A stretch of DNA of 64,000 nucleotides from an uncultured Chloroflexia bacterium (GCA_963829295.1 CAWHHU010000003.1:360157-424156), one strand, 5' to 3'. Shown: positions 23,143-47,815, numbered from the stretch's first letter. Numbers and translations are program-made. The notes: generated from the letters alone by a model not told the origin.

Positions 23143-23219
23143 TGGTGGGCGATACTGGACTCGAACCAGTGACCTCATGCATGTCAAGCATGCGCTCTAA
23201 CCAGCTGAGCTAATCGCCC
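23143..23219 (-). tRNA. tRNA-Val (anticodon GAC), CCA encoded
   Basis: The minus strand reads GGGCGATTAGCTCAGCTGGTTAGAGCGCATGCTTGACATGCATGAGGTCACTGGTTCGAGTCCAGTATCGCCCACCA. This gives a cloverleaf with a 7-bp acceptor stem, anticodon stem CATGC/GCATG and loop TTGACAT. Confidence 0.9.
23179..23219. repeat. attL core: 41-nt direct repeat, equal to tRNA-Val nt 1-41
   Basis: Identical to 47769..47815 apart from a 6-nt CTCTAA duplication in the distal copy. Confidence 0.8.
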
Positions 23220-23350: not shown

Positions 23351-24337
23351 ATGACCGGTCAAGCGGCCAAGGCCGCGATTGTAGCAACCGAGGGCGACCT
23401 CGGCGCCAACCTCGCCCGCTTCCGGCGCAGCCTGCGCGCCGAGAACGTCAGCCCCAACACGCTCCTCGCCTACGGTGGCGCGGTCGAGCGGCTCGCCGGC
23501 TACCTGACGGCCGAGGCAATGCCGACCGATGTTGGCGCCATTCGCCGCGAGCACATCGAGGCGTTCATCGCGGACGCGCTCGAGCGCTTCAAGCCCGCGA
23601 CCGCCAACCACCGCTTCCGCGGCGTCCAGCGCTTCTTCAACTACCTCGTCGATGAGGGCGAGCTGGCGGCGTCGCCAATGGCCCGGATGCGGCCGCCGCG
23701 CATTCCCGACGACCCGCCCGCGGTCCTGTCCCGGGCCGACCAGGCGCGCCTGCTCACGGCCTGCGAGGGCGCCGACTTCGAGGCGCGGCGCGACCGGGCG
23801 ATCATCAGCGTGTTCCTTGATACCGGGGCCCGTCGGGCCGAGGTGGCCGGTCTGCGCTGGACGCCCGCGGATGACGCGACCAACGACGCCGACCTCGACG
23901 GTCGCGCGATCAGGGTCCTCGGCAAGGGCCGGCGCGAACGGCTGGTCAGGATCGGCCACAAGACCGTCAAGGACCTCGATCGCTACCTCGCCCTGCGGGC
24001 GCGCCACCCGCAGGCGCACCTGGCCGCCCTGTGGATTGGTCGCCGCGGCGCGCTGACCGACTCGGGCATCGGGCAGCTCGTCCAGGAGCGGGGCCGGGCG
24101 GCCGGGCTCGGCGACAACCTCCATCCGCATCAGCTGCGGCACACCTTCGCCCATGAATGGTTGGCGGCCGGCGGAAACGAGGGCGATCTCATGCGGCTCG
24201 CGGGCTGGCGCTCGCGAGCGATGCTCCAGCGCTACGCGGCGTCGACCGCCCAGGACCGCGCGCTCGCTGCCCACGATCGGATCTCAGCCCAAGGATCGCC
24301 TCTGAGGAGACTTGGTCGCTCCGGCCCCGGAACTTAA
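23351..24337 (+). CDS. int: Tyrosine recombinase / phage-type integrase (XerC/XerD-like)
   Basis: N-terminal SAM-like core-binding domain. Catalytic R...HxxR...Y ([28 protein letters not shown]). Confidence 0.9.
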
Positions 24338-28684: not shown

Positions 28685-29166
28685 GTGCGGCCCTGGCGGC
28701 GTGCCGACCGCGTCCGGCGCGCACGCGCCGAGAGATAGGCGAGCCGCGCGAAATGGGCCGACCGGGCATGGGCAGCGCGGCGCGCCCGCTCCGCCGGCGG
28801 AAGGGCGCCGTCGGGGTCCACAAGTCGCTCAAAGCTGGCGAGGAACGCGGCTCGGCCTGCGGCCGAGGTCTCGCGCGGGTCGTGCGTCGCGTGGAGGCGG
28901 TAGGCGCCGATCCGGCCGCGCAGCGAGCGCTCCGCCCGGCTCGGGCCGTCGTGTGCACCGTCGCGCCGTGCCCGGGTCACGCCGGCGCCTCGTGGATCTC
29001 CTCGTCGCCCCCGTCGCCAAGAACGCCCAGCCAGGCGTCGGTTGCGACTGGCGTCGGGCAGGAGTACGGCGTCGGATCGGTGAGGAGGTCGCCGAGCGCC
29101 GTCCGGTGGCCGCCGGGGAACAAGCAGAGGATCCGCAGGCACGTTCGGTCGCGGGTGCGGAGGCAC
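28681..29166 (-). CDS. Hypothetical small protein, real start probably internal, overlapping a diverged repeat
   Basis: The ORF overlaps the upstream gene's start. The C-terminal ~80 aa look protein-like and the N-terminus is R/P-rich. Confidence 0.2.
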   Translation of the reverse strand: MPPHPRPNVPADPLLVPRRPPDGARRPPHRSDAVLLPDASRNRRLAGRSWRRGRRGDPRGAGVTRARRDGAHDGPSRAERSLRGRIGAYRLHATHDPRETSAAGRAAFLASFERLVDPDGALPPAERARRAAHARSAHFARLAYLSARARRTRSARRQGRT

Positions 29167-29408
29167 CCCGGATGAATGACCAGCAGGCGATCACATGCGG
29201 GAGCGGACACAAACGAACCGATCACCCGTATGGGGTCCCGCGTCGAAGGTGCGCCGAGCACACACGGACCGCGCGGCAGCAGTGGGGCACGCAAGACCCC
29301 ACGGCGCGACCGATCCATCGACCGACCAAACGCGTGTTTGGCGCCGTTCCGGACGATCGCGTTGTTCCGTTTGTGCAACGTCCCGCGTTTCCCAATTCAG
29401 GGCGACCT

Positions 29409-30496
29409 CAACCAGGGGCTTCATCGACCCTCGATTTCGAGGGCGGCCCAGTCCCATCTCCTCTCCGGCGGCACGGCCATGAACCCCGGAGCCACCGATC
29501 GATCCACGCCGCCGTCGCGAGGGGACGGAGCCTTCCGATCGACCGGCCGGCCGCCGGGCCGCACGGTCACGGCGCCGGCCTCGAGGGTGACGACCCGCCA
29601 CGGCGTCTGCGACCGGCAGGGCGACGGCCCCGACCCTGATTGACACGGCGGACGGCTTGCGCTGGCAGCCATGGTTCCGCCGAGACGTCGAGCGGGCGGT
29701 CGACCGCCGAGGTCAGCCGCCGGCTTCGACCCTAGCCACTTCGGCCGTCGCAGGGAACCCGGATTCCGTGCAAGATTCTGTGTATTGTCAGCTCCGCTAC
29801 GTCCCGATTGACACCCAGAATTACGTGTGCGACGCTCCCATCGTGCTCAAGACGAAGCGGACGTACAACCTCAGCCGGCGGACGATCGAGACGGTTCAGG
29901 CGCTCGCGGAGCGGAAGGTCGCGCCGACCCAGGACGCCCTCGTCGAGCTCGCCGTCGACGAGCTCGCCCGCCATGTCCGCGAGACCGACGAAGCGGCCGC
30001 CTGGGCGGGCGCGGCCACCGATCCGGACTTTGTCGCCGAGGCCGCCGAGCTCGAGGCGGCATATGGCGACGCCGACCCGGCCACGTGGCCGAGACCGTAG
30101 GGCTGCCAGCGCTCCGCTGGGCCGTCGTGATCGTCGGACTCGATCCGGTGGAGGGTCACGAGCAGGCCGGTGAGCGGCGGGCGCTGGTCGTGAGCTATGA
30201 GGCGTTCCACCGCTCGGGGCTGCTGACCGTGTGTCCGATCAGCGCCGCCCGCGAGAAGCCGCGCTATCCGGGCGAGGTCGCGATCCCGGCCGGCGAAGGT
30301 GGCCAGACGAAGTCCGGGCTCATCCTGTGCGCCCAGGTCCGGACGATCTCGGTCCGTCGGATCCGGGCGACCGGCATCCTGCCCGGTGGCGGCGTCGCCC
30401 ACCTCACCGACGCCCGGATCCGCTCGGCGGTGCGAGCGGCCCTTCGACACCACCTCGGGCTCGATATCCCAGCCCAGTCGGACGGGGCGGCGAGCG
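29409..30496. repeat. Copy A of a duplicated 1088-bp segment (operator region + RHH antitoxin + MazF toxin)
   Basis: Identical to 40277..41228 except for a 136-bp deletion in copy B. Diverged (~78%) homology extends left, with 28985-29140 matching 39360-39515. Confidence 0.85.
29843..30100 (+). CDS. Ribbon-helix-helix type antitoxin, cognate to the downstream MazF
   Basis: VLKTKRTYNLSRRTIETVQALAERKVAPTQDALVELAV... is an RHH DNA-binding N-terminus with an acidic C-terminal tail. It is located just upstream of the toxin and overlaps it by 16 nt. Confidence 0.5.
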   Translation: MLKTKRTYNLSRRTIETVQALAERKVAPTQDALVELAVDELARHVRETDEAAAWAGAATDPDFVAEAAELEAAYGDADPATWPRP

Positions 30497-30578: not shown

Positions 30579-33200
30579 CTACTCGCCGCGAAGCGAGGCG
30601 GCCGGAAGCTCCCGATAGACGTGGGCGAGGGGCACCAGCGCGGCCAGCGTGGTGGCAAGGACAGCGCTCAGGAGCGCGAGCCCGAGGCTCACCGCGAATG
30701 CTATGGGCATGACCCTGAGCACTAGCCCGATCGCCCCGACGATCAGCGTCGCTCCGGTGCCGCCTATGCATCCGATCACGATCGCTTGGATCGTGACAAC
30801 GGTCGCGACAGCCCGCCGTGGCCAGCCCAGGGCGCGAAGCGCCCCGAACTCCGCCTGCCGCTCGACATAGCCGAGGGTGACGATCTCTGCGACGGCCAGC
30901 GCTCCGATCACCAGTGTGACCAACGCAACCACGAAGTTGAACGTTCGTGCGCGGGCAGCGATGTGAACGCCGAGCAACGTGGTGTCCAGCTGCCCCGCGA
31001 ACCCGGCAGCCACGAGCGTGGAGCCGCCGACGAGCACCGCGCCGAGGCCAATGGTCACCGCGCCGAGCAGCGCCTCGGTGCGCCGGCTGCCAAGTACCTC
31101 CCTGAGCCCGAGCCCGGGAACAGACGTGACTCGTCGGACCCGTTCCGGGCCTGTACGCATGGCGCGACCGGCTGACGCCCGTGACGACGCGAGAGCCGGA
31201 ACCAACCCGGCCACCCCCGAGATCGCGAGTGCCAGGGGCACCACGGCTGCAAGCTGCCACGGCTCGATCCGGAGCGCAAGGGCGGCCTGCAACGCAGTGG
31301 CGGCCACCAACCCGATCACGGCGACCACCGCGCCCAGGAGCAGGACCTCGATCTCAACGAGGGCTCCGACACGCCATGCGGGCCAGCCCAGGGCGCGCAG
31401 GACGCCAAACTCGGCAACTCGACGCCGACTGGCCAGGTAGGCCGTCGCTGCCACCAGCACCGTGGCAGCGATCAGCACGACGATCAGGATTGCCAGATCC
31501 TGGGTCGCGAGTGCCTGCGCGAAGCGGATCGCCACCCCCTTGACGGACCATTGCTCGGAGACCGTCAGGGCGGGCCGGCCGAAGTCACCGGCTGGCAGGT
31601 CGACGACCACATGGCGGGGCGACGACCCGGCGACGATGTCGACATCGAGCCCGGTCGCGTCGTGGATGTCGGCGGCCACCTGAGCGAGCCGATCCTGGGC
31701 CTCTTGCCCCGGGTTTTCCGTTCCCGCCACGCGGACGCGGATGGCGCTGATGAATGCCGCACCGGCGGCGCCATCGTAGCGAGATGGATCGGCAAGCCAG
31801 GCTGCCGTCTGGAGCGAGACCAGGATGAGTGGCGGGCTGGTCACGTACGACGCCGGAGACCGGGTCGCGCCGAGCTGCCGGCCATCCGCCACCTGAACGG
31901 CCGGCAGTGAATAGGTCTCGAGTCGCCCGCCTGCCAGGATGTCGAAGCCTGGCACGCAGTCAGGGTTGAACTGACCGATAGGGTCCCAGCGGCTGAACAC
32001 TTCCGACCGGCGCTGCTGGTCATGGCGCACCACCGGCCGGAACCAGGTGTCAGTGGACTCGGGCGGGACGTGGGTCGCGCCGCCCGGGGTGATGGTCACG
32101 CTGGACTCATAGATCGAGGGATCGGTCGGTTGAGCATGGGCGGCGAGGTGATCGGGGCCGAGCAGGTCGTAGCTGACGTCGCCGATCGACCACAGCGGTG
32201 ACGTGTCGTAGAACGATCCGCTGTTGAGGGTCGGCAGGAACGCGCGATACGCGTCGTTTGCGCTCGCCGTGCGGCTGTCGACCGGTTGCCACCCCGAGAG
32301 GGTGTCGACACCGTCCTTGGCGAGCACCTCCGGATTCGCCGCGCGCTCGATCGTCATCGTGAGCGTCTCGTCGAGGAACGAGCGGTCGCTGACGAGGACC
32401 GGCAGGACAGGCTGTGGGCCGGCGGGCGAGCTGACCTCTGTCGGCACGTCGGACGCCTGGAGATAGCGACCCTGGGTCACGCACCGGTCGAGGTCGACGA
32501 GGCTGGCCTCCGCAACCGGATCGATGCCGGCGATGACGAACGGCTCCGGGAAGTTCACGAAGGCGCCCGCTGTCCCTGCCGGCAAGCCGCGGACCGGGAG
32601 TGCGTCGGGCGTCTGACCACCAAAGCAGGTGACCGTCGCGTCGCAGGCGATCTCCAGATCACCGACCTCGAGGTGGGCCGCCCCGACCGCGCTGCGCACG
32701 ACCCGGCCCTGGGGCGCGATCACCAGGTAGCCAGCAGGCTCCGGCGGATACCGACTCAGCCCGGCCTCCGCGGTGATGCTGGTCGTGATCCGAAGAACCG
32801 TGACTCCTGTGCCGTCGGCGAGCGACGAGAGATCCACCGGAATGCCGGCCGGCCATTGCACGAAGCCGGCGACCGCGATCGGCGCGGCGACCTCGACCTC
32901 GGGGACCGCGCGGATGCTCGCGAGCTGCGCCTCGGTGATCCCGCCGTACAGGCCGGAGATGGCATTGGGTCTGACCAGGCCCTGCGCCTGCTCGAGTGCG
33001 GTCGCCGACCCCACCGGGCGAACGAGCAGCTGATACGGTCCGCCCCATGCTCGGGTGATGTCGCCTGTCACGCTCGCCTGCGTCGTGCGGGTCGTCCCGG
33101 CCATCAACACGAACCCAATGACCGCGGTGGCCAGGCCAGCTGTTGCGAGGAGGGTGGCGAATCGCCGGGAAGTGATTTCCTGAACTGCGAGCCTGAGCAT
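30579..33200 (-). CDS. ABC transporter permease with two FtsX domains (MacB-like, 873 aa)
   Basis: N-terminal TM, large extracytoplasmic domain, FtsX TM bundle, second ECD, second FtsX bundle. Immediately downstream of the ABC ATPase. Confidence 0.85.
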   Translation of the reverse strand: MLRLAVQEITSRRFATLLATAGLATAVIGFVLMAGTTRTTQASVTGDITRAWGGPYQLLVRPVGSATALEQAQGLVRPNAISGLYGGITEAQLASIRAVPEVEVAAPIAVAGFVQWPAGIPVDLSSLADGTGVTVLRITTSITAEAGLSRYPPEPAGYLVIAPQGRVVRSAVGAAHLEVGDLEIACDATVTCFGGQTPDALPVRGLPAGTAGAFVNFPEPFVIAGIDPVAEASLVDLDRCVTQGRYLQASDVPTEVSSPAGPQPVLPVLVSDRSFLDETLTMTIERAANPEVLAKDGVDTLSGWQPVDSRTASANDAYRAFLPTLNSGSFYDTSPLWSIGDVSYDLLGPDHLAAHAQPTDPSIYESSVTITPGGATHVPPESTDTWFRPVVRHDQQRRSEVFSRWDPIGQFNPDCVPGFDILAGGRLETYSLPAVQVADGRQLGATRSPASYVTSPPLILVSLQTAAWLADPSRYDGAAGAAFISAIRVRVAGTENPGQEAQDRLAQVAADIHDATGLDVDIVAGSSPRHVVVDLPAGDFGRPALTVSEQWSVKGVAIRFAQALATQDLAILIVVLIAATVLVAATAYLASRRRVAEFGVLRALGWPAWRVGALVEIEVLLLGAVVAVIGLVAATALQAALALRIEPWQLAAVVPLALAISGVAGLVPALASSRASAGRAMRTGPERVRRVTSVPGLGLREVLGSRRTEALLGAVTIGLGAVLVGGSTLVAAGFAGQLDTTLLGVHIAARARTFNFVVALVTLVIGALAVAEIVTLGYVERQAEFGALRALGWPRRAVATVVTIQAIVIGCIGGTGATLIVGAIGLVLRVMPIAFAVSLGLALLSAVLATTLAALVPLAHVYRELPAASLRGE

Positions 33201-33208
33201 CGACGCGG

Positions 33209-33940
33209 CTACTCCGCGTCCAGAACATTGACCACGCCGGGCAGGCCTTCGTCCAGGCGCTCGTCGCTGGTCAGGCGTCCGCTCACCAGGTGCAGCACGC
33301 GATCCGCAGCCGCGGCGACCGCGGGATCGTGGGTGGCGACGACGACCGTCAGGTCACTCTCCTCTCGGAGTTGATCGAGATAGGCCATGAACTCGGTGGT
33401 TCGGTCTGCATCAAGGTTCCCGGTTGGCTCGTCAGCGAGCAGCAGCGCGGGCGCACCCACCATCGCGCGTGCCAGCGAGACCCGCTGGCGCTCGCCACCG
33501 GACAGTCGAGCCGGCGGGAAATCGGTCCGATCGGCCAACCCAAGGGAGGCGAGAAGCGTGCGAGCGCGCGGTTCAAGGCTGCGGCGAGACTCCCACGGCA
33601 AGCGTGCGGCGATGACGTTGTCAAGGGCGCTGAGCCCTGGGAGGAGAAACGGCTCCTGGAACACCAGGCCCATGAGCCTGGCACGGAGCGCCGTGCGTTC
33701 GCGGTCGCTGGCGGCGTCCATCGCTTCGCCCAGAACCTTGACGGTTCCGTGGGTCGGTAGATCGAGCCCAGCGATGAGGTTGAGGAGGGTGGTCTTGCCT
33801 GAGCCCGATGGGCCTGTGATGGCAACCGCCTGACCCTGTTGCACCTCAAGGGTGACGTCCAGCAGGGCGGCCACCTCGGTTGGCCCGACCTGATAGACCC
33901 GGGAGAGTGCCTGGAGCTCGATGGCCGGCAGCAGGCGCAT
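33209..33940 (-). CDS. ABC transporter ATP-binding protein (MacB/LolD-type)
   Basis: Walker A GPSGSGKTTLLN. Signature LSGGERQRVSLARA. Walker B LLLADEPTGNLD. H-loop. Start MRLLPAIELQ at 33940. Confidence 0.9.
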   Translation of the reverse strand: MRLLPAIELQALSRVYQVGPTEVAALLDVTLEVQQGQAVAITGPSGSGKTTLLNLIAGLDLPTHGTVKVLGEAMDAASDRERTALRARLMGLVFQEPFLLPGLSALDNVIAARLPWESRRSLEPRARTLLASLGLADRTDFPPARLSGGERQRVSLARAMVGAPALLLADEPTGNLDADRTTEFMAYLDQLREESDLTVVVATHDPAVAAAADRVLHLVSGRLTSDERLDEGLPGVVNVLDAE

Positions 33941-34497
33941 CAGGCGAGCTTGGCGGACCTCGTGCCCACTCGCCTGCGCGCCCGAGTGCGCGCCACGACC
34001 GCCGATGACGTGTCGTGGATATGGGTGGCCCACCGAAGGTCGGCTTCAGTACGCCGGATCTCGCGGTCGAGGGCGGATTGACCAAAGCCTTCGTCCCCGG
34101 GAATTCCACGTCGGGCGGCTCGAAGCCGATGCAGCTCAACCGTGCGCTCACGGACGACGGTCTCGGCGAGCGCGTCAAATCGATCGGGAATGGCGAGCCT
34201 CGCAACAGCCAGACGCACGACGATCTCGTCGGCCGTGCTCGGTTCCCAGAGCCAGGCCTCTGCAACACGACGACCAGCAGGTGTCAGCGTGAGGAGGTGG
34301 CGATCGGGCCGGCTCACCTGACGGACTCGGCGGGGATCGACCAGCCCATCGCGCTCCATGCGCCCGAGCGTGAGATAGACCTGACTGGTGCGGGTCGACC
34401 AGAGGGGGCCGAGCTCGGCCTCGAGCGTGATCACGAGCTCATAGCCATAGGAGGGTCCCACGAGGAGAAGTGCGGCGATTGCCCCATGCAGGTTCAT
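33940..34497 (-). CDS. PadR-family transcriptional regulator
   Basis: GYELVITLEAELGPLWSTRTSQVYLTLGRMERDGLV is a PadR winged-HTH. It is followed by a C-terminal helical domain. Confidence 0.8.
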   Translation of the reverse strand: MNLHGAIAALLLVGPSYGYELVITLEAELGPLWSTRTSQVYLTLGRMERDGLVDPRRVRQVSRPDRHLLTLTPAGRRVAEAWLWEPSTADEIVVRLAVARLAIPDRFDALAETVVRERTVELHRLRAARRGIPGDEGFGQSALDREIRRTEADLRWATHIHDTSSAVVARTRARRRVGTRSAKLA

Positions 34498-34847
34498 GCT
34501 CGGGCGGTCATCCGGTGGCCCGCAGAGGAGAGCATGGCCAACACCCGAGACAACCCGGCGCCAAGTTGCTGGTCGGCAATTCGACCATCGCGCACCAGGA
34601 ACGTATGCGGAGTGGCCTGCGCCCCGAAGTCGTCTCGCACCCTCCCCTCCCGATCGGTCACACAGGAGGCACCAGGGATTCGGACCAGCTCAGCGAGTGA
34701 GCCATCATTTGGCGTCTCCGGCTCGATTACGATAATCGGCCAGTCTTCTGGCACCACTGCCTCATTGAGCCCTGCCAACAGGTCGCGACAGGGTCGGCGA
34801 TCGAGGTGAGAGGCCACCACGTCGGTCACATTGCCCATTCTGTTCAC
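34494..34847 (-). CDS. Thioredoxin-fold TlpA/MauD-like protein lacking the CXXC motif (degenerate paralogue of 37879..38412)
   Basis: ...TPHTFLVRDGRIADQQLG aligns with ...SPFAIHVRDGVVRAKGV of the MauD-like protein. Only PCRD sits where CGIC is expected. The ORF overlaps the padR start by 4 nt. Confidence 0.45.
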   Translation of the reverse strand: MNRMGNVTDVVASHLDRRPCRDLLAGLNEAVVPEDWPIIVIEPETPNDGSLAELVRIPGASCVTDREGRVRDDFGAQATPHTFLVRDGRIADQQLGAGLSRVLAMLSSAGHRMTARA

Positions 34848-35212: not shown

Positions 35213-35539
35213 TCGCGATCGGCACGGTCGTGCTCACACACCGGTGCTCGATCGGCCGGTTGACACCTCCGACGGTCCGTTGTCGTGTCTTTGGCGTCTC
35301 CGCGGTCGACAGCCGCGACCACGTCGCGACCGGTGCGCATTCCGGGGAATCCGATCGCCCATTCCGGGGTTTTCGATCACCCTCGGTCGGAGGCCGCGGA
35401 GCGGCCGACACGAGGGCTGGTTCAGCCCCTGATGGTCACCTCCTCTCGATGGTCTGCGGGTAGTCTGGCACGCCGCCCGTGGTGGACGACGGTGTCGACG
35501 CGTCCGGGGCCGGTGCGACCCCGGCTGGGTCGTCGGGAG

Positions 35540-35732
35540 CCTTGACCGTCCGGCGGCTCGAGTCGCCCTTGAGCTCCAGCCCGTAGGCGTTGTGGACCAG
35601 GCGGTCGAGGATCGCGTCGGCGACGGTGGGCTCGCCCAAGGCCTCGTGCCAGTGCCCGACCGGGAGCCGGCTCGTGACGATGGTCGAGCGCAGGCCTCCG
35701 CGATCCTCGATCACCTCCAGCAGGTCGGCCGC
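35540..35732 (-). pseudogene. IS21-family IstB-like helper ATPase C-terminal fragment
   Basis: ...TSRLPVGHWHEALGEPTVADAILDRLVHNAYGLELKGDSSRR matches the IstB C-terminal signature (TSN...EW.E.FGD...A.AILDRL.HH.....I.GESYR). There is no upstream ATPase core. Confidence 0.45.
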
Positions 35733-36058
35733 CCGGGCGGGAGGCACCGGGGAGAGCCGATCCCGATCAGCGACCCGTGAACGGGCGAGATCCGGGCGGC
35801 GCAGCTGTTCGTGGCGGTGATCGGCGCGTCTTCGTACACGTACGCCGAGGCGACGCCGTCCCAGGAGCTGCCCCACTGGCCTGGGCGCCTTCAAGAAGCG
35901 TGCACGCCGTGGCCAGGGCTGGCCGCTCGCGCGCCGAAGCAGAGCCGAACATCGAAGAGGCTGCGCTCCCCGCCGGCATCATCCCGGGAGGGCTTGAGAA
36001 TGGTCCAGCGAGGAACAGGTGCCGAGCATCCCCTTGCGGCCCAGCGCTGCGCTGCCTG

Positions 36059-36697
36059 TCAGCCAGGTGGGACCTTGTCTCGACCCCCAGTCGAGGGGAC
36101 CCCGGTAACCAAGAAGACATCAACTATCGAGAAGCCGATACCGTCAACTTGGTACGCGAAGCAGCCTGGACCCCCTACCAATGTAAGAGACGGCCATGTT
36201 CGTTCGACGCCAGGGGTCCCTGGAGGGAAGAGGAGTTCGCCGGCTGCCGGCTGGCCGCTCAAGATGAAGGTCACGGAGCCTGGTATGTCGAGTTGAGCTC
36301 CTCGGATCTGAATTGGCCCGGCATACTGAGCCGCAGCAAACCACAGAACCTTGATCTGATAGAGCGAACCAGAGCGCGCTCCAAGGGGTTGGCTTCCCTC
36401 GTTGCCGAACCCAACGGGATACACCGGGCCGACGCCCAGCGCAGGTCCGACGCTCGGCGAGACATCGCTCCCGGTGGAGACCGGGCAGTCATCAAGAGCC
36501 CGATGCAGAGTTAGCAGCCGATTGGGGATCGACGTCAGGTTCGTGTTGCCCGCGCTAGACCCGAGAATTGCACTGGCACCTCCGGACGCGACTAACGTGG
36601 CAAGGATCCCGAGGATGACGATGGCGGTCGCGACAAGAATGCCGACGCGCTGCGTGGAAAGGATCGTATGCAGGCGCGGCGGGCTCGGGCTGCGCAT
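36059..36697 (-). CDS. Membrane-anchored extracytoplasmic hypothetical protein
   Basis: N-terminal signal-anchor ([24 protein letters not shown]) then a ~170-aa domain. Low-GC region. No recognisable family. Confidence 0.4.
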
Positions 36698-36720
36698 GGG
36701 ATCAGACGACGACGGGACCA

Positions 36721-37284
36721 TTAAATCGATCGGGCAATGACGAGCCAAGCCAGGAAGAGCATGGCGAGATCGAGCATCCGAAACAACCTCCACCGCCCAG
36801 TGAAGGCCATTGCTACGCGCGCTGGATCCGTGCGGGTCGACAGGAGGCCAACAAGGAGGGGGACCCATCGTCCTACTCCATATGCGACAGCGGAGAACCC
36901 TGCTAGGTCACCACGCCCAGTCAGCCACCCGATGACGAGAGTCGCCAGCCAGGCGCCATAGGGTGCTTTGGTAGCCAACCCCGTTCCAAGAAAGATCCCA
37001 TATCTCGTGGCGCCGAGCAAAGGGCGCTCACGCATCCATCCTCGTGGCACCTGCCAGCCAGACTGGGGTACCCGGTGCATGAGGCTTGCCAAGAACAAGA
37101 TGCTGACGGCGACAAGCGCGGCGACCGGCCACCATGCAGATCGAGGCGTTACTATACCAATCGCACCGACAGCGACAAATACCGATCCCGCACCGACCAA
37201 TAGCCCACCCAAGTGCAAGATACTTGCTGCTACAACTCTAGGTAGTGATGCCACCTCGACCAGGGGCCTGATCGTCATGATCAT
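36721..37284 (-). CDS. Polytopic membrane protein (4-6 TM, Cys-free), hypothetical
   Basis: Hydrophobic helices throughout. Downstream of the Cys-rich gene, low GC. Confidence 0.45.
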   Translation of the reverse strand: MIMTIRPLVEVASLPRVVAASILHLGGLLVGAGSVFVAVGAIGIVTPRSAWWPVAALVAVSILFLASLMHRVPQSGWQVPRGWMRERPLLGATRYGIFLGTGLATKAPYGAWLATLVIGWLTGRGDLAGFSAVAYGVGRWVPLLVGLLSTRTDPARVAMAFTGRWRLFRMLDLAMLFLAWLVIARSI

Positions 37285-37370
37285 GTTGGCCCCTCACGGC
37301 AACGAGCCGGTCGACACCCCCGCAAATAGCGCAAGCATCACCGCCGTCTCGCCAACGTCCATCGGCGCCC

Positions 37371-37877
37371 TCAGCAGTTTGGATTAACCCCGGTCAGCTT
37401 CCGATCCCTTGGCTGGACAAATACCGGTGAGTCCGGCACGCCCCTTGGGAGGGCATGATTGTCACGATACGCGCAGCCACACGCGTATGTATTGCACGCG
37501 CCTGCTGGGCACCAACAATCACAGCAGTACCAAAGAACGCCATAACAGACAGCAGACCAACAGTTGCCTGGACTCCAGTATTCCGTGTCCGGATAGCACC
37601 CGCCCTGACACGAAGATCCGCTCGATGAACACTTGCTCGACGGGCAATTCACTCCTCCCGGAGGGCTACAGCAGGCAATCGCCTCAACGTCCAGAACGCC
37701 CAAGGCACCTTCGGCCAGTGACGCCGCCGTCGCCGCGAATACGAACTGGAGACCCCTCCGCAAGAGCTGTCTACGATTGCGCCGACGCGCGAACTCCTCC
37801 GCAGCAAGGCCGAATGATCCGGGCTGTGCTTCCCGATCGAACTCCAGTCTGGGCGAGTTCGGATCATCTCCTGTCAT
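37371..37877 (-). CDS. Tat-signal, cysteine-rich (16 Cys, 4 Trp) small secreted protein with local MauA-like (methylamine dehydrogenase light chain) motifs
   Basis: ATG at 37877 has a strong SD (GAGGAGGG) and lies 1 nt after the MauD-like stop. The ~60-aa leader carries RRRNRRQLLRRGLQFVFAATAASLA (twin-arginine). The mature region is IACCSPPGGVNCPSSKCSSSGSSCQGGCYPDTEYWSPGNCWSAVCYGVLWYCCDCWCPAGACNTYACGCAYRDNH. Compare MauA ICDCSGGSLTNCPPGT...ASW57VASCY...YRDCCG. Confidence 0.6.
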   Translation of the reverse strand: MTGDDPNSPRLEFDREAQPGSFGLAAEEFARRRNRRQLLRRGLQFVFAATAASLAEGALGVLDVEAIACCSPPGGVNCPSSKCSSSGSSCQGGCYPDTEYWSPGNCWSAVCYGVLWYCCDCWCPAGACNTYACGCAYRDNHALPRGVPDSPVFVQPRDRKLTGVNPNC

Positions 37878-37878
37878 A

Positions 37879-38412
37879 TCAGCCCTCCTCAGAGCGGGGG
37901 TGTTCCAGGTTCTCAATCCGGAATAGGTCAATCGCGTGGTTTACGACGCCCTTGGCCCTAACCACCCCATCTCTGACATGTATCGCAAAGGGGCTCACTC
38001 GAACCCGAAGCCTCGAGGCCAGATCAGAATCCGTACCGGCAGCCTCCAATCCAGATGCAGCTGCCCAGTAGGGAAGAGCGCCGCCGTCGGTCTGTACGAG
38101 CAGGTGAAGACCAAGGTGGTCAATCTCTTGGCGCTCGAAAGTGCCAAGCTCTTCGATCAAGCTCTCGCAGATCCCGCAGCCGTTCAGACCGAACAACAAG
38201 AGGTGGTTGCCGCTAGAAACATCGATGCTGCCGTCATGTACACGGACTTGATCAAGGCTCGTGCCCACTCGTGGACCATCGCGCGTCGTTGCGCCCCGCG
38301 TGCGCAGATACAGATGACCGAGCTCTCGGTACAGCGACAGCAGTAGCACAAGAATAGCGACGACCACGAGCCAAAGCAGGACGTAGCTGGCGACAAAGAA
38401 ACCTCCGCTCAT
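37879..38412 (-). CDS. MauD-like membrane-anchored thioredoxin-fold thiol-disulfide oxidoreductase (CGIC active site)
   Basis: N-terminal TM anchor, then LLLFGLNGCGICESL (CXXC) and the thioredoxin fold. Located between the MauE-like gene and the Cys-rich gene. Confidence 0.6.
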   Translation of the reverse strand: MSGGFFVASYVLLWLVVVAILVLLLSLYRELGHLYLRTRGATTRDGPRVGTSLDQVRVHDGSIDVSSGNHLLLFGLNGCGICESLIEELGTFERQEIDHLGLHLLVQTDGGALPYWAAASGLEAAGTDSDLASRLRVRVSPFAIHVRDGVVRAKGVVNHAIDLFRIENLEHPRSEEG

Positions 38413-38414
38413 GG

Positions 38415-38906
38415 TCAGGCTACTTCGTAGAAGTGACGCACAGCGCCAAGAATCAGGGCACCAAGCGGAATGATCGCGCCAGCAATGCGAATGGTAATCG
38501 CATCAGCCATGGCTTCTTCTGGAAGCGACTGCCGGCCGAAGCTCAGCCAGATGAGTAGCAACCCCAGAGAGAGGAAGACAACGGCGTGCACGTACGAGTA
38601 CGTGGCAGCTTCGTCCAATTGTCCGTAGCACCCGCAGCGCAGCCCGGGATGGCGGCGCGCCATGAACGCTTGTACGACAGCAAATCCGATGAAGAGCGCC
38701 GCCGCCGGCACCGCAAACGGCTGTGGGCCGAGCAACAGCAGGCCGGCGAAGACCTCAGCGAGGACGAGAGTCCCAATCAGCGTTGCGCGACGTCGGTCCG
38801 TTGGCCACGCGACGTCCGCCGTCCCACGCATCAACTTGCCTGCAGCGGCCCCGAGAAGGATCCAACCCCCGCCAAATGCGGCGACCCAGTAGAGGCTCGA
38901 ATCCAT
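38415..38906 (-). CDS. MauE/DoxX-family membrane protein
   Basis: A 4-TM, ~160-aa protein with RCGCYG in TM3, as in methylamine-utilisation MauE-like proteins. Its stop lies 2 nt before the MauD-like start. Confidence 0.55.
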   Translation of the reverse strand: MDSSLYWVAAFGGGWILLGAAAGKLMRGTADVAWPTDRRRATLIGTLVLAEVFAGLLLLGPQPFAVPAAALFIGFAVVQAFMARRHPGLRCGCYGQLDEAATYSYVHAVVFLSLGLLLIWLSFGRQSLPEEAMADAITIRIAGAIIPLGALILGAVRHFYEVA

Positions 38907-39352: not shown

Positions 39353-40120
39353 TCACCGGAGCGCCTCGTCACGCTCCTCGTCGCCGCCCTCACCGAGCAG
39401 GTGTAGCCACCCCTCGGTGGCACCTGGCGTCGGACAATGCCGCGGCATCGGATGGGCAAGGAGGTCGCCGAGCGCCGACCGGTGGCCGCCGGGGAACAGC
39501 GGCCCGATGCTGGTCCCGAGCCCTGCCCTCCGGAGCTCGCCGAGCCCGAGCGCCCAGGCCCGACCGGCGAGCTCAGGGTGACCGCCGTCCCGCCGGACGA
39601 CCCGGGCGAGGAAGCCGACCCGCTCTCGACCCGGAGCCACGAACAGGACATGCGAGCCCTGCCGGCGAGCGCGGTGGCGTAGCGGGCGAGCTTGTCGCGG
39701 CTGTCGGGTCGGTGCTCGGTGCCCTCGTCGATCTCGAGGCACAGGACGCCCGACGCCGTCGACTCCCGCAGGACGACGATGCTGGCGGGGTAGACGCCGG
39801 CGAGGAGTTGGGTCGCGTTGCCCTCCGGGTGCTAGAGCTGGACGATCGGTTCGGCGGTGGGCTCCGAGCGGACGAGGGCGCAGATGCTCTCGACGACGTT
39901 GAGCGAGTGGCCCAGTTGCGTGCCGGCGCGGAAATGGGTGAGCGACTTGTGGCCGAGACTTGTAGCCGAGACGGCGGCGACCGCGGGCCGAGACGCGGAA
40001 GGCGAGCGACGCACAACCGCGCGTCTGTGGTGGGAGGACGGCGCGATCGACGTAGCCGAGGCGGTGGAGGACCGCGAGACGCTGCTGGGCGGTCTGCCGG
40101 CGGCGGTTGACGAGGGTCAC
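39353..40120 (-). pseudogene. Replication-relaxation family pseudogene (paralogue of 27743..28684; frameshifts and internal stop)
   Basis: The N-terminus QRLAVLHRLGYVDRAVL is the Replic_Relax HTH. Homology to copy A continues in a second frame (LNVVESICALV..PASIVVLRES...EIDEGTEH...KLARYATALAGR) through a TAG at 39832-39834. Confidence 0.5.
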
Positions 40121-40276
40121 AAGCTGAGCGGTCGTGGCAACGTCGCAGCGGCAGAGAATCCGCGGGCGGGCCCGGTCACGGGTGCGGAGGCACCCCGGAT
40201 CGATGACTAGCCGGCGATCACATGCGGGAGCGGATCATGACGAGGCCCAGATCTCGCACGCGTTCGAGGACATGCT

Positions 40277-41228
40277 CAACCAGGGGCTTCATCGACCCTC
40301 GATTTCGAGGGCGGCCCAGTCCCATCTCCTCTCCGGCGGCACGGCCATGAACCCCGGAGCCACCGATCGATCCACGCCGCCGTCGCGAGGGGACGGAGCC
40401 TTCCGATCGACCGGCCGGCCGCCGGGCCGCACGGTCACGGCGCCGGCCTCGAGGGTGACGACCCGCCACGGCGTCTGCGACCGGCAGGGCGACGGCCCCG
40501 ACCCTGATTGACACGGCGGACGGCTTGCGCTGGCAGCCATGGTTCCGCCGAGACGTCGAGCGGGCGGTCGACCGCCGAGGTCAGCCGCCGGCTTCGACCC
40601 TAGCCACTTCGGCCGTCGCAGGGAACCCGGATTCCGTGCAAGATTCTGTGTATTGTCAGCTCCGCTACGTCCCGATTGACACCCACGATGACGTGTGCAA
40701 CGCTCCCATCGTGCTCAAGACGAAGCGGCCGCCTGGGCGGGCGCGGCCACCGATCCCGACTTTGTCGGCGAGGCCGCCGAGCTCGAGGCGGCATATGGCG
40801 ACGCCGAGCCGGCCACGTGGCCGAGACCGTAGGGCTGCCAGCGCTCCGCTGGGCCGTCGTGATCGTCGGACTCGATCCGGTGGAGGGTCACGAGCAGGCC
40901 GGTGAGCGGCGGGCGCTGGTCGTGAGCTATGAGGCGTTCCACCGCTCGGGGCTGCTGACCGTGTGTCCGATCAGCGCCGCCCGCGAGAAGCCGCGCTATC
41001 CGGGCGAGGTCGCGATCCCGGCCGGCGAAGGTGGCCAGACGAAGTCCGGGCTCATCCTGTGCGCCCAGGTCCGGACGATCTCGGTCCGTCGGATCCGGGC
41101 GACCGGCATCCTGCCCGGTGGCGGCGTCGCCCACCTCACCGACGCCCGGATCCGCTCGGCGGTGCGAGCGGCCCTCCGACACCACCTCGGGCTCGATATC
41201 CCAGCCCAGTCGGACGGGGCGGCGAGCG
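40277..41228. repeat. Copy B of the duplicated TA segment, with an internal 136-bp deletion
   Basis: Identical to 29409..30496 minus the 136 bp between two GACGAAGCGG direct repeats (A: 29851-29860 and 29987-29996). Confidence 0.85.
40711..40832 (+). pseudogene. RHH antitoxin remnant (RHH domain deleted, downstream frame shifted)
   Basis: VLKTKR is followed directly by the post-deletion sequence. The 136-nt deletion is not a multiple of 3. Confidence 0.5.
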
Positions 41229-41353
41229 CGATAGGGGTTGACCTGGCGCAGCGCGAAGACGGGACCGTCACGAAGCCCGAGCGACCCGAGGGTGAAGCCA
41301 TGACGCCGTCGCCCGGCGTGTCAGACGACCGGCAGCCAACAGAAAGGAGGTGA
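40817..41353 (+). CDS. mazF: MazF/PemK-family toxin, copy 2 (intact core, divergent C-terminus)
   Basis: Identical to copy A through ...DIPAQSDGAAS, then a different 40-aa tail. Confidence 0.7.
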   Translation: MAETVGLPALRWAVVIVGLDPVEGHEQAGERRALVVSYEAFHRSGLLTVCPISAAREKPRYPGEVAIPAGEGGQTKSGLILCAQVRTISVRRIRATGILPGGGVAHLTDARIRSAVRAALRHHLGLDIPAQSDGAASAIGVDLAQREDGTVTKPERPEGEAMTPSPGVSDDRQPTERR

Positions 41354-46222: not shown

Positions 46223-47398
46223 ATGAGCGGACGATGGCGCTGGAGCGTGTTGGCGGCGCTCATCGTGCTCGGTGCGACCGGCTGCTCGGATAATCAGCCG
46301 GGCGCTGTCCGGCCTTCCGTGGCGTCGGCATCGAGGCCTTCGTCGGATGTCCCGACCACGGCCCAGATCTCCAGCCCAGTCTCAACGTCGACCGTGAACG
46401 AAGCGTCGCGCGGCCGGTTCCGTCCGACCGGGGCGCCCATGATCGCGCGGGCCGAGGCGCTCGCAGCGCCGCTGCCCGATGGTCGCGTCCTTGTCGTCGG
46501 CGGCTGCGCCTGTGCGGACGCCGAGGTCTACGATCCGGCTATTGGGACATTCTCCGCGACGGGCCCCGTCTCGCACGTTCGCGCTCAGGGCGAGACCTTG
46601 ACACCACTTCCAGATGGGCGCGTCCTGCTCGCGGGCGGCTGGTCACCCTCTGGCCTTGGGGTTCCCGAGGCCGAGGTCTACCATCCCGCGTCGGGCTCCT
46701 TCGCCGACGTCGGCGACCTCATTGTCCCGGTCGCGTTCCATGCCGCGATCACCCTCGCGAACGGGCGCGTGCTCCTCGCGGGCGGCGCTGACGACGAAGG
46801 CGACCGGCTTGTTGTCACCCAGGTCTTCGACCCTGCGACGAACACGTTCTTCCGCGGCCAGGACCTGCCCGGCGCGCGTGCCGGGGCAGCCACCGCGACA
46901 CTGGAGGATGGTGCCCTGATCGTCGGCGGTGCCGGGTCCTGCACTCGCGACGACCCGCTCCCTGATGCGCTCCGCGTGAACGACACCGGCTTGGTCACCT
47001 CGGTCGCCACGCTGATCACGCCCCGCACGGGTGCCACCGCGGTCGGGCTCGTCGGCGACAGCGTGGTCGTGGTCGCCGGCAGCACGAGCTGTCGCACCGA
47101 AGAGCCGATCGGCAAGGCGGAGATCCTCGCTTCGGGCGCGGCGGCGTTCGCGTCCGCGGGCGAAACGGCCCCCATGCTGGCCGCGGCGGCGGTCCTGCTC
47201 GACAACGGATCCGTCCTCGTGCTAGGTGATGGCACTCCCGCCTCGGTCCTATACGAGATGCCGGCGGGCGTCCTCGTTCCGGGCCCCGATTTGACGCATG
47301 CCCGGTTCCGGCCGGCGATGGTCGGGCTCGACGACGGGAGCATTCTCGTGGTTGGCGGGAGTGACGAGCGGATCGCAGCCGAGATATACGAGCCCTGA
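46223..47398 (+). CDS. Kelch-repeat beta-propeller lipoprotein
   Basis: Lipobox LGATGC. A disordered S/P/T linker. Seven repeats of the L(P)DGRVL(V/L)(A/V)GG...(E)VYDP type. Confidence 0.65.
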   Translation: MSGRWRWSVLAALIVLGATGCSDNQPGAVRPSVASASRPSSDVPTTAQISSPVSTSTVNEASRGRFRPTGAPMIARAEALAAPLPDGRVLVVGGCACADAEVYDPAIGTFSATGPVSHVRAQGETLTPLPDGRVLLAGGWSPSGLGVPEAEVYHPASGSFADVGDLIVPVAFHAAITLANGRVLLAGGADDEGDRLVVTQVFDPATNTFFRGQDLPGARAGAATATLEDGALIVGGAGSCTRDDPLPDALRVNDTGLVTSVATLITPRTGATAVGLVGDSVVVVAGSTSCRTEEPIGKAEILASGAAAFASAGETAPMLAAAAVLLDNGSVLVLGDGTPASVLYEMPAGVLVPGPDLTHARFRPAMVGLDDGSILVVGGSDERIAAEIYEP

Positions 47399-47768: not shown

Positions 47769-47815
47769 GCATGTCAAGCATGCGCTCTAACTCTAACCAG
47801 CTGAGCTAATCGCCC
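47769..47815. repeat. attR core: 5' 41 nt of tRNA-Val with a 6-nt CTCTAA internal duplication (tRNA fragment, non-functional)
   Basis: GCATGTCAAGCATGCGCTCTAAC[TCTAAC]CAGCTGAGCTAATCGCCC matches 23179..23219. There is no D/T-arm completion and no 3' half. Confidence 0.8.

Follow-up and report, generated by a model that had tools for sequence, protein, structure and literature searches.

What does the maturation machinery of methylamine dehydrogenase (MADH) do at a locus without MADH? The question is raised by an operon on the minus strand of a 64-kb stretch of DNA from an uncultured Chloroflexia bacterium (the window; all coordinates are counted from its first letter), in which genes for a MauE-like and a MauD-like protein precede the gene for a small cysteine-rich protein, hereafter called the cargo. 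A first-pass annotation had read these three genes as an orphan mauE–mauD–'mauA-like' cluster. The orphan maturation cassette stands, with its Cys-rich protein bearing a twin-arginine-type leader and with neither MauB nor MauG, and it now gains a MauF homologue, whereas the 'mauA-like' identity of the cargo does not survive. The reading that we favour, with a probability of roughly 60%, is that the operon was acquired horizontally and encodes a dedicated MauE/MauD/MauF oxidative-folding module for an orphan Cys-rich cargo.

The three minus-strand open reading frames (ORFs) described at first are all present, with gaps of 2 nt between the mauE-like and mauD-like genes and 1 nt between the mauD-like and cargo genes, and the operon runs on beyond them:

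38415–38906, minus strand: mauE-like membrane protein of 163 aa (Pfam PF07291), with CGC (a CXC motif) within PGLRCGCYG
37879–38412, minus strand: mauD-like thioredoxin-fold protein of 177 aa, with an N-terminal transmembrane anchor and CGIC
37371–37877, minus strand: cargo precursor, 168 aa from its ATG, of an orphan Cys-rich family
37680–37877, minus strand: cargo leader of about 66 aa, with NRRQLLRRG as twin-arginine motif, an h-region of mild hydrophobicity and VEA as cleavage-type site
37374–37679, minus strand: mature cargo domain of 102 aa, with 16 Cys, 4 Trp and a Pro-rich tail ending in Cys
37294–37362, minus strand: mini-ORF of 22 codons, MDVGETAVMLALFAGVSTGSLP then TGA, in frame with the mauF-like gene
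37260–37296, minus strand: junction comprising the TGA, a GGGGCC segment, the ATG of the mauF-like gene and a two-tier hairpin, with Shine–Dalgarno-like GAGGGG
36721–37284, minus strand: mauF-like polytopic membrane protein of 187 aa, without Cys, with PQSGWQVPRGW and LGTGxxTKAPY motifs
36059–36721, minus strand: fifth gene, Y, 220 aa, with a signal or anchor and then a beta-rich domain (about 140 aa; two conserved Cys)

The start of Y overlaps the stop of the mauF-like gene as TAATG. The identical cargo protein is encoded on an independent Logan contig (L023), where the gene calls of 163, 177, 168, 187 and 220 aa are those of the window. The cluster had been described as flanked by two uncharacterised membrane proteins; both in fact sit downstream in the same operon, one being, as judged by profile comparison, a MauF homologue and the other a secreted or lipid-anchored protein of 220 aa, for which the mechanically listed ORF of 269 aa was too long.

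The mauE-like protein, initially described as MauE/DoxX-like with an RCGCYG motif, matches the Pfam MauE family (PF07291; E = 5e-12, 46.7 bits for a cutoff of 27), and the profile of its family finds Methylobacterium MauE with 27.5 bits (E = 1.7e-9). Its C91-G92-C93 motif is invariant in the alignment of cassette homologues. MauE replaces DsbB in E. coli, the CXC motif being the active site and required for this activity, and has been described as a general DsbB-like disulfide generator whose distribution is unlike that of the other mau markers (10.64898/2026.03.05.709764). For the mauD-like protein, likewise correctly described as a membrane-anchored thioredoxin with CGIC, the top NCBIfam match is MauD (TIGR02661; E = 1.3e-7), under the equivalog cutoff: the mauD-like proteins of the cassettes score 31–49 bits against this model, for a cutoff of 188.6. 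Yet their profile matches authentic MauD over its full length (86 bits, E = 1.3e-27), and the CxxC (invariant), the cis-Pro and the AKG..N motif all align. We therefore consider the mauD-like protein to be a MauD homologue or a member of a sister subfamily, and not an equivalog.

The fourth gene had looked uncharacterised because authentic MauF itself is matched by neither Pfam nor NCBIfam. The profile of the mauF-like family nevertheless matches residues 108–279 of Methylobacterium MauF (48.6 bits, E = 5.7e-16), with a PQ..QVP motif (PQRRAQVP in the MauF core) common to both, and the family aligns with three canonical MauF proteins; a tblastn search with MauF detects the related locus L009 (E = 6.4e-7). 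The AlphaFold2 (AF2) model of the window protein has a mean predicted local distance difference test (pLDDT) score of 78.6. The core homology to MauF is thus present, while the region preceding the WSPCGYS motif is shrunk to the 22-aa mini-ORF and the Cys codon is a TGA. On these alignments the downstream membrane protein is a MauF homologue, and the conserved core of the operon is therefore mauE–mauD–cargo–mauF.

This core is found in about ten loci. The order mauE–mauD–cargo–mauF holds in L001, L002–5, L006 (a metagenome-assembled genome of Propionibacteriales), L007, L008/9, L010 and L023/24, the first four proteins each align across the loci, and their identity ranges from 22 to 80%. The cargo family occurs solely inside such cassettes, always between the mauD-like and mauF-like genes with gaps of 1–90 nt. 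In the recovered loci it always travels with MauE and MauD, the association that the first-pass annotation had proposed to look for, and no MauB was found in the flanks searched for it (see below).

What, then, is the cargo? Its mature part of 102 aa contains 16 Cys, 12 of them invariant, and 4 Trp; W107, W122 and D120 are invariant within the pattern PGNCW...CCDCWCP...CGC. The Cys and Trp counts and the RR pair first reported are right, and the lengths then estimated at about 60 aa for the leader and about 105 aa for the mature domain become about 66 and 102. The RR of the leader is identical in all eight cargo sequences inspected (seven of the window type and the L009 variant). Assignment of the leader to the twin-arginine translocation (Tat) type comes from the motif: neither TIGR01409 nor the Pfam Tat models match the window protein at E<=1, and L009 scores 0.028, under the cutoff. 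The leader is accordingly best called a putative Tat leader. No family of Pfam or NCBIfam contains the cargo, and only four relatives were found among 5.8 billion proteins. An exhaustive HMMER profile search of 1.84 billion representatives returned two real cargo clusters; its extra matches (P0006-8) were dismissed as repetitive junk. The AF2 model of the mature cargo, from four sequences, has a pLDDT of 38.7 and is unusable.

The 'mauA-like' label had been founded on local motifs common to the cargo and the MADH light chain, MauA, which bears tryptophan tryptophylquinone (TTQ). As the query for MauA we used the Paracoccus denitrificans sequence (identical to PDB entry 1mg2_B), gathered 231 homologues and aligned 44. 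Proteins were then scored against the MauA profile together with 2000 composition-matched shuffles each, with composition correction off. The mature cargo of the window scores 9.0 bits, compared with 7.9 ± 3.1 bits for its shuffles (z of about 0.35), and 628 of the 2000 shuffles reach the real score (p of about 0.3). All of the cargo relatives are likewise at shuffle level. The positive controls, MauA-like proteins from the metagenomic loci L016 and L020, score 37.9 bits (z = 8.2) and 31.3 bits (z = 6.8), respectively, scores that none of their 2000 shuffles reach; the MauA-like protein of L019 scores 16.6 bits (z = 3.1, 18/2000 shuffles). These three proteins carry extra Cys and sit beside MauF-like genes, and the window-type cargo profile scores them at z of about 0. 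PF02975 does not match the window cargo (E<=1) or six other cargo sequences (E<=10), a PDB profile search with the cargo (E<=10) returned no MADH light chain and there is no MauA among the matches from the 1.84 billion representatives. The cargo profile also matches none of the Mau proteins of the Methylobacterium cluster.

Since the scores do not rise above those of shuffles, the noted motif pairs are what chance yields from two Cys-rich sequences. By these sequence comparisons the cargo is not a detectable MauA, and a TTQ-like cofactor has no positive evidence in its favour, because the tests in which the cargo fails to appear MauA-like do detect very divergent MauA. Other apparent links were discarded as well. 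An hhalign comparison of the cargo with MauA aligned the leader alone (43% probability) and was undone by controls with unrelated Tat leaders: against the MauA leader, TorA scores 19.1, DmsA 13.9 and the window leader 5.6, the latter being no nearer to MauA than the leaders of TorA, DmsA, SufI and NapA, and the best scorer against the MauA n-region is that of PhoD. The stretch LDLLAERTTRR of the L009 leader was dropped as a link to MauA after the Tat-leader controls. Finally, for a by-eye alignment of L009 with MauA (C23, C29, D32, W57 and D76), 436 of 2000 shuffles reach the real score.

The partners of MauA are missing from these loci as well. A tblastn search with Methylobacterium MauB (E<=0.1) found nothing in the window or in L001, L002, L006, L007, L008, L009 and L010, and the same is true of a search with the divergent MauB-like protein of L016 (E<=0.1). 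Searches with MauG, MauC, MauJ, MauL, MauM and MauN were also empty for the window and for the flanks of L001, L002 and L006–L010 (covered to a distance of at most about 10 kb in L001, L006 and L007). CxxCH occurs in no window ORF of at least 100 aa, in keeping with the initial statement that no MauB, MauG or amicyanin is encoded in the window, and no cassette examined contains MauG, a flavoprotein hydroxylase or a radical S-adenosylmethionine (radical-SAM) enzyme.

A metagenome scan with the MauF-like profile revealed further architectures. In a soil metagenome, L016 (1–3603) carries, in order, a mauD-like gene, a gene for a MauA-like protein of 168 aa with 19 Cys and LPVDR in its leader, a TGA-split mauF, a gene for a MauB-like protein (399 aa; Pfam PF06433, E = 4.1e-10) and a lipoprotein gene. 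From this gene set it follows that the MauF-like subfamily also serves genuine, divergent amine-dehydrogenase-like systems, and the slot after mauF in L016-type systems is that of the partner (heavy) subunit. The L016 locus is followed by a RepB-primase gene and so may be part of a plasmid or mobile element; partial relatives of it are present in L019 and L020. At L014 (4988–6441; also L012, L013, L015, L017 and L018) the pair mauE plus split mauF-like stands without mauD or a Cys-rich gene nearby; in L014 the GC content is 56% and the pair lies amid housekeeping genes. This suggests a general MauE–MauF partnership beyond client-specific cassettes.

The mauF-like gene has a peculiar start. The mini-ORF is followed, in frame, by TGA, three codons (G-A-N) and the ATG of the mauF-like gene, and this arrangement recurs in 16 of the 16 loci inspected (the window, L001, L002, L006, L007, L009, L010 and L012–L020), the stop always being TGA. 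The mini-ORF corresponds to the MauF segment just ahead of the single invariant Cys, which lies in LSTWSPCGYSS in the three canonical proteins. In all 16 loci the TGA aligns exactly with this Cys (WSP-C-GYS; for example ...LWSP*GDSM in L016), and past it G-x-[S/N] residues are conserved up to an invariant ATG. Variation in the mini-ORF follows a coding pattern (all 12 third positions are variable, but only 5 of the first and 2 of the second; of the codon differences in pairwise comparisons, 60 are synonymous and 24 nonsynonymous), which indicates that it is under coding selection. A two-tier hairpin past the TGA, where a selenoprotein gene would have its SECIS element, is predicted in 9 of 11 loci; in the window it has −19.2 kcal/mol (z = −2.7), but the other loci range from z = +1.2 to −2.3, so that it is statistically weak. 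It encloses a Shine–Dalgarno-like GAGG 7 nt upstream of the invariant AUG, as expected for translational coupling, and the same TGAGGG...ATG device is found at the junction of the cargo gene with the mini-ORF. Rfam finds no family in the cassette, the junction hairpin included.

The mauF-like gene also shows the pattern used to recognize selenoproteins, an in-frame UGA opposite a Cys of the homologues with conservation on both sides. Nevertheless, gene fission is favoured over selenocysteine, which the hosts of all 16 loci, in about five sequence groups, would have to be able to decode. No tRNA-Sec was found in the window or in the related loci examined, and our literature search found no paper linking selenocysteine with 'methylamine utilization protein'. 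A split mauF with translational coupling through stop, Shine–Dalgarno and start is thus quite probable from the alignments; that the TGA is a selenocysteine codon, the MauF-like protein being a selenoprotein with UGA replacing the invariant Cys, would be the appreciably less likely alternative.

The fifth slot is variable. The Y family is common to the window, L002 and L001, with weaker matches in L006 and L021; a second family holds this slot in L007 and L010, a third in L009, and in L016 the slot holds the MauB-like protein. Y was therefore rejected as a core member, the slot holding at least three unrelated families. Y is unrelated to all Mau proteins of the Methylobacterium cluster in profile comparisons, and its homologues in L002, L001 and L006 have lipobox-like sequences. 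The family in the slot changes with the cargo subtype. In L021 (5764–7383) an N-terminally degenerate MauF-like ORF precedes a Y homologue (profile E = 5.4e-18), and cargo, mauE and mauD genes are absent from the vicinity; this may be a decayed cassette in which Y is linked to the MauF-like gene independently of the cargo.

The operon lies on a genomic island of about 24.6 kb, which also contains a Replic_Relax protein and insertion sequence (IS) fragments and whose borders are as follows:

23143–23219, minus strand: tRNA-Val (GAC), island boundary (ARAGORN)
23351–24337, plus strand: tyrosine integrase (Pfam Phage_integrase, 2e-21)
47769–47815, no strand: distal copy of the tRNA-Val 5′ half, a direct repeat in two adjoining exact blocks (D16, 23 nt; D12, 25 nt)

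The repeated part of the tRNA-Val gene is 23179–23219. The GC content of the cassette is 0.58–0.63 and its GC content at third codon positions (GC3) is 0.60–0.70, compared with about 0.90 for host-like genes, and the helper genes have the same atypical GC3 as the cargo gene. The proposal of a low-GC block on a tRNA-Val island, horizontally acquired as a unit, is therefore supported by the GC3 difference, the integrase and the flanking tRNA-Val repeats. The integrase lies on the 5′ side of the tRNA-Val gene, an unusual orientation for a tRNA-targeting element.

Direct repeats of 1.3–1.7 kb (28985–30286 and 39361–41018; blocks of 78–100% identity) bracket the cassette together with an IstB fragment (35436–35894) and genes at 30579–34497 that adjoin the cassette: an FtsX-type permease (873 aa), an ATP-binding cassette (ABC) ATPase, whose Walker A (GPSGSGKTT) and LSGGERQR motifs were identified by eye, and, matched by Pfam at 2.3e-12, a PadR regulator. 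These repeats look like accretion or tandem recombination of related elements; the copy at 40–41 kb overlaps an ORF for a Pfam PemK/MazF-type toxin (40676–41353). The ABC, FtsX and PadR genes are not conserved beside the cassette in the other loci. A 117-aa ORF (34494–34847) resembles by eye the C-terminal half of a TlpA/ResA-type thioredoxin, with no Pfam match. At 46223–47398, inside the island, a Kelch-repeat (galactose-oxidase-type) beta-propeller is encoded, with internal DNA repeats of 147–150 nt; it has no relation to MauB by tblastn and is absent beside the cassette in the other loci. A PADLOC search and a blastn search against plasmids both came back empty.

How might the cassette work? 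The cargo precursor would be exported through its long leader of twin-arginine type, as the motif suggests. Outside the membrane, the anchored MauD-like protein would use its CGIC to introduce or shuffle six to eight disulfides in the 102-aa mature domain, and the CGC of the MauE-like protein would re-oxidise MauD and pass the electrons to quinone, if it shares the published DsbB-like activity. The MauF-like protein with its mini-ORF would be the third conserved helper and might assist in some way. The product would be a small, disulfide-knotted extracytoplasmic protein of an orphan family, most likely acting with the cognate, lineage-variable surface protein Y. Y itself could be a partner subunit or a cognate binding or immunity protein.

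Several points weigh against this folding-module scheme. Export by Tat is proposed from a motif that no Tat hidden Markov model detects at E<=1. The Tat route is moreover odd for a protein that forms its disulfides outside the cell, although MauA does likewise. The invariant W107, W122 and D120, which neighbour Cys, are compatible with a cross-linked cofactor too, and the AF2 result for the cargo, with its pLDDT of only 38.7, leaves room for a MauA-like fold. The L014-type pairs of mauE and mauF without an adjacent cargo imply that the helpers need not be client-specific. Finally, not even for MADH systems has a chemistry been assigned to MauF, and we found no open papers on its function.

Could the cargo instead be a weapon? 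It might be an antimicrobial or effector that is secreted and disulfide-knotted, comparable to a bacteriocin or to a ribosomally made, post-translationally modified peptide (RiPP), with Y as immunity or receptor lipoprotein and MauE/D/F as folding enzymes. A patchy and rare distribution on a mobile island of atypical GC would suit such a protein, as would a surface- or lipid-anchored Y whose family changes with the cargo subtype, and decRiPPter has flagged, as candidate RiPP biosynthetic gene clusters, mauE(/mauD) loci of Streptomyces whose precursors are Cys-rich. The ABC ATPase, FtsX-type permease and PadR regulator adjoining the cassette in the window would fit too, but they are not conserved near it elsewhere. 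The conserved core has neither a protease nor a dedicated exporter. The cargo is in addition far bigger than RiPP cores: for a decRiPPter-type precursor (<100 aa, at least 8 Cys, beside mauE) the corresponding lengths here are 168 aa, or 102 aa when mature, and three published decRiPPter precursors score against the cargo profile no better than shuffles. Bacteriocins do not typically have a Tat-type leader whose long n-region is conserved, and PADLOC reports nothing. We regard an effector as unlikely.

Unlikely as well, in our judgement, is an extremely diverged analogue of the light chain of MADH or of aromatic amine dehydrogenase, with a Trp-quinone or Cys/Trp cross-link, matured by MauE/D/F and with Y replacing the beta-propeller. 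The arrangement invites the idea: all three helpers E, D and F are there, the cargo occupies the mauA slot straight after mauD, its 12 invariant Cys equal those of MauA in number and are accompanied by two Trp and, in CCDCW, an Asp that are likewise invariant, and its long twin-arginine-type leader is like that of MauA. Genuine MauA-like proteins with extra Cys are, besides, found at the MauF-linked loci L016, L019 and L020, with a MauB-like protein in the L016 slot after mauF. The leader likeness, however, is generic to Tat leaders; the cargo has z of about 0.35 against MauA and about 0 against the L016 type, where controls have 6.8–8.2; PF02975, PDB and the 1.84-billion library are silent; and MauG, the flavoprotein hydroxylase and radical-SAM enzymes are absent from every cassette. 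Unlikely too is that the cargo is the first known member of a class of small, cross-linked redox subunits that bear a Trp-quinone or another cofactor derived from Cys/Trp, evolved beyond recognition from the MADH light chain or in parallel with it, are matured by MauE/D/F without MauG and, here, pair with Y. Least probable is that the mauE/mauD/mauF-like genes form a general extracytoplasmic disulfide system, an alternative to DsbB/DsbA with the cargo as a mere neighbour or client: MauE is indeed a generalist DsbB substitute, widespread outside mau clusters, and L014-type loci have mauE and mauF-like genes without mauD or a Cys-rich gene, yet the cargo family is nowhere else than in its fixed place between mauD-like and mauF-like genes, whose atypical GC3 it shares.

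If the operon does encode a dedicated folding module, its interest is broader than the window. MauE, MauD and MauF have so far been studied almost only as helpers of one enzyme, and a mobile operon that keeps the trio but swaps the client would make it a transferable module for folding disulfide-dense proteins that bear Tat-type leaders. The cassette offers a minimal four-gene system for dissecting the role of MauF and a possible route to producing knotted Cys-rich proteins, and it brings to light an orphan protein family in which 12 Cys and two Trp are invariant. The junction with TGA at the Cys position provides a concrete case in which to decide between gene fission with coupling and a selenoprotein that has gone unrecognised.

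Compared with the canonical mau clusters of Methylobacterium (L011) and Paracoccus (L025), with the order mauFBEDACJGLMN, the cassette has homologues of MauE, MauD and MauF, the order E–D–[small Cys-rich exported protein] and, in this small protein, a long twin-arginine-type leader and many Cys. It differs in having no MauA homologue, MauB, MauG, amicyanin or MauJ/L/M/N, and in the place of mauF, which follows the cargo here and comes first in the mau cluster. From the mauF-like protein itself the first 85–90 or so residues of MauF are missing, as is the invariant Cys, and the mini-ORF ending in TGA comes before it. The host of the cassette is, in addition, a high-GC organism. In the mau systems these helpers are reportedly needed for the MADH small subunit, as Chistoserdov in 1994 and van der Palen in 1997 (the latter cited in PMC7794033) are said to have found.

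L016 stands between the two. It has the same MauF-like subfamily, the TGA-split junction, a mauD-like gene directly before a Cys-rich protein and a partner gene after mauF; unlike the window, it has a clear MauA homologue (z = 8.2) and a MADH heavy chain (4.1e-10). QhpC, the gamma subunit of quinohemoprotein amine dehydrogenase, carries cysteine tryptophylquinone and thioether cross-links and depends on QhpD (a radical-SAM enzyme), QhpE (a protease) and QhpG (a flavoprotein). Like the cargo it is a small Cys-rich subunit of periplasmic type with dedicated maturation genes, and it is cross-linked, but counterparts of QhpD, QhpE and QhpG are not present here and no search showed any sequence relation.

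Two earlier studies show that the first-pass annotation went too far in calling this an undescribed use of the MauE/MauD pair. In decRiPPter (2020), Streptomyces mauE(/mauD) clusters were listed whose precursors have at least 8 Cys and which lack other mau genes (PMC7794033). These families share with the cassette an orphan mauE/mauD and an adjacent gene for a small Cys- and Trp-rich product; their precursors, by contrast, are of 57–66 aa with a short non-Tat leader and are unrelated to the cargo, MauF was not reported, and the candidates are experimentally uncharacterised (PMC7794033). The MauE preprint (10.64898/2026.03.05.709764), which makes a use of MauE outside MADH unsurprising, concerns the same family with the CGC motif and a thioredoxin-fold partner. 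It describes, however, a housekeeping MauE with DsbA in Calditrichota and Thermodesulfobacteriota, and not a dedicated mobile operon of MauD, MauF and a single client. What is new here is the membership of MauF, the four-gene core, the orphan cargo family with its Tat-type leader and the continuum towards MauA-like systems.

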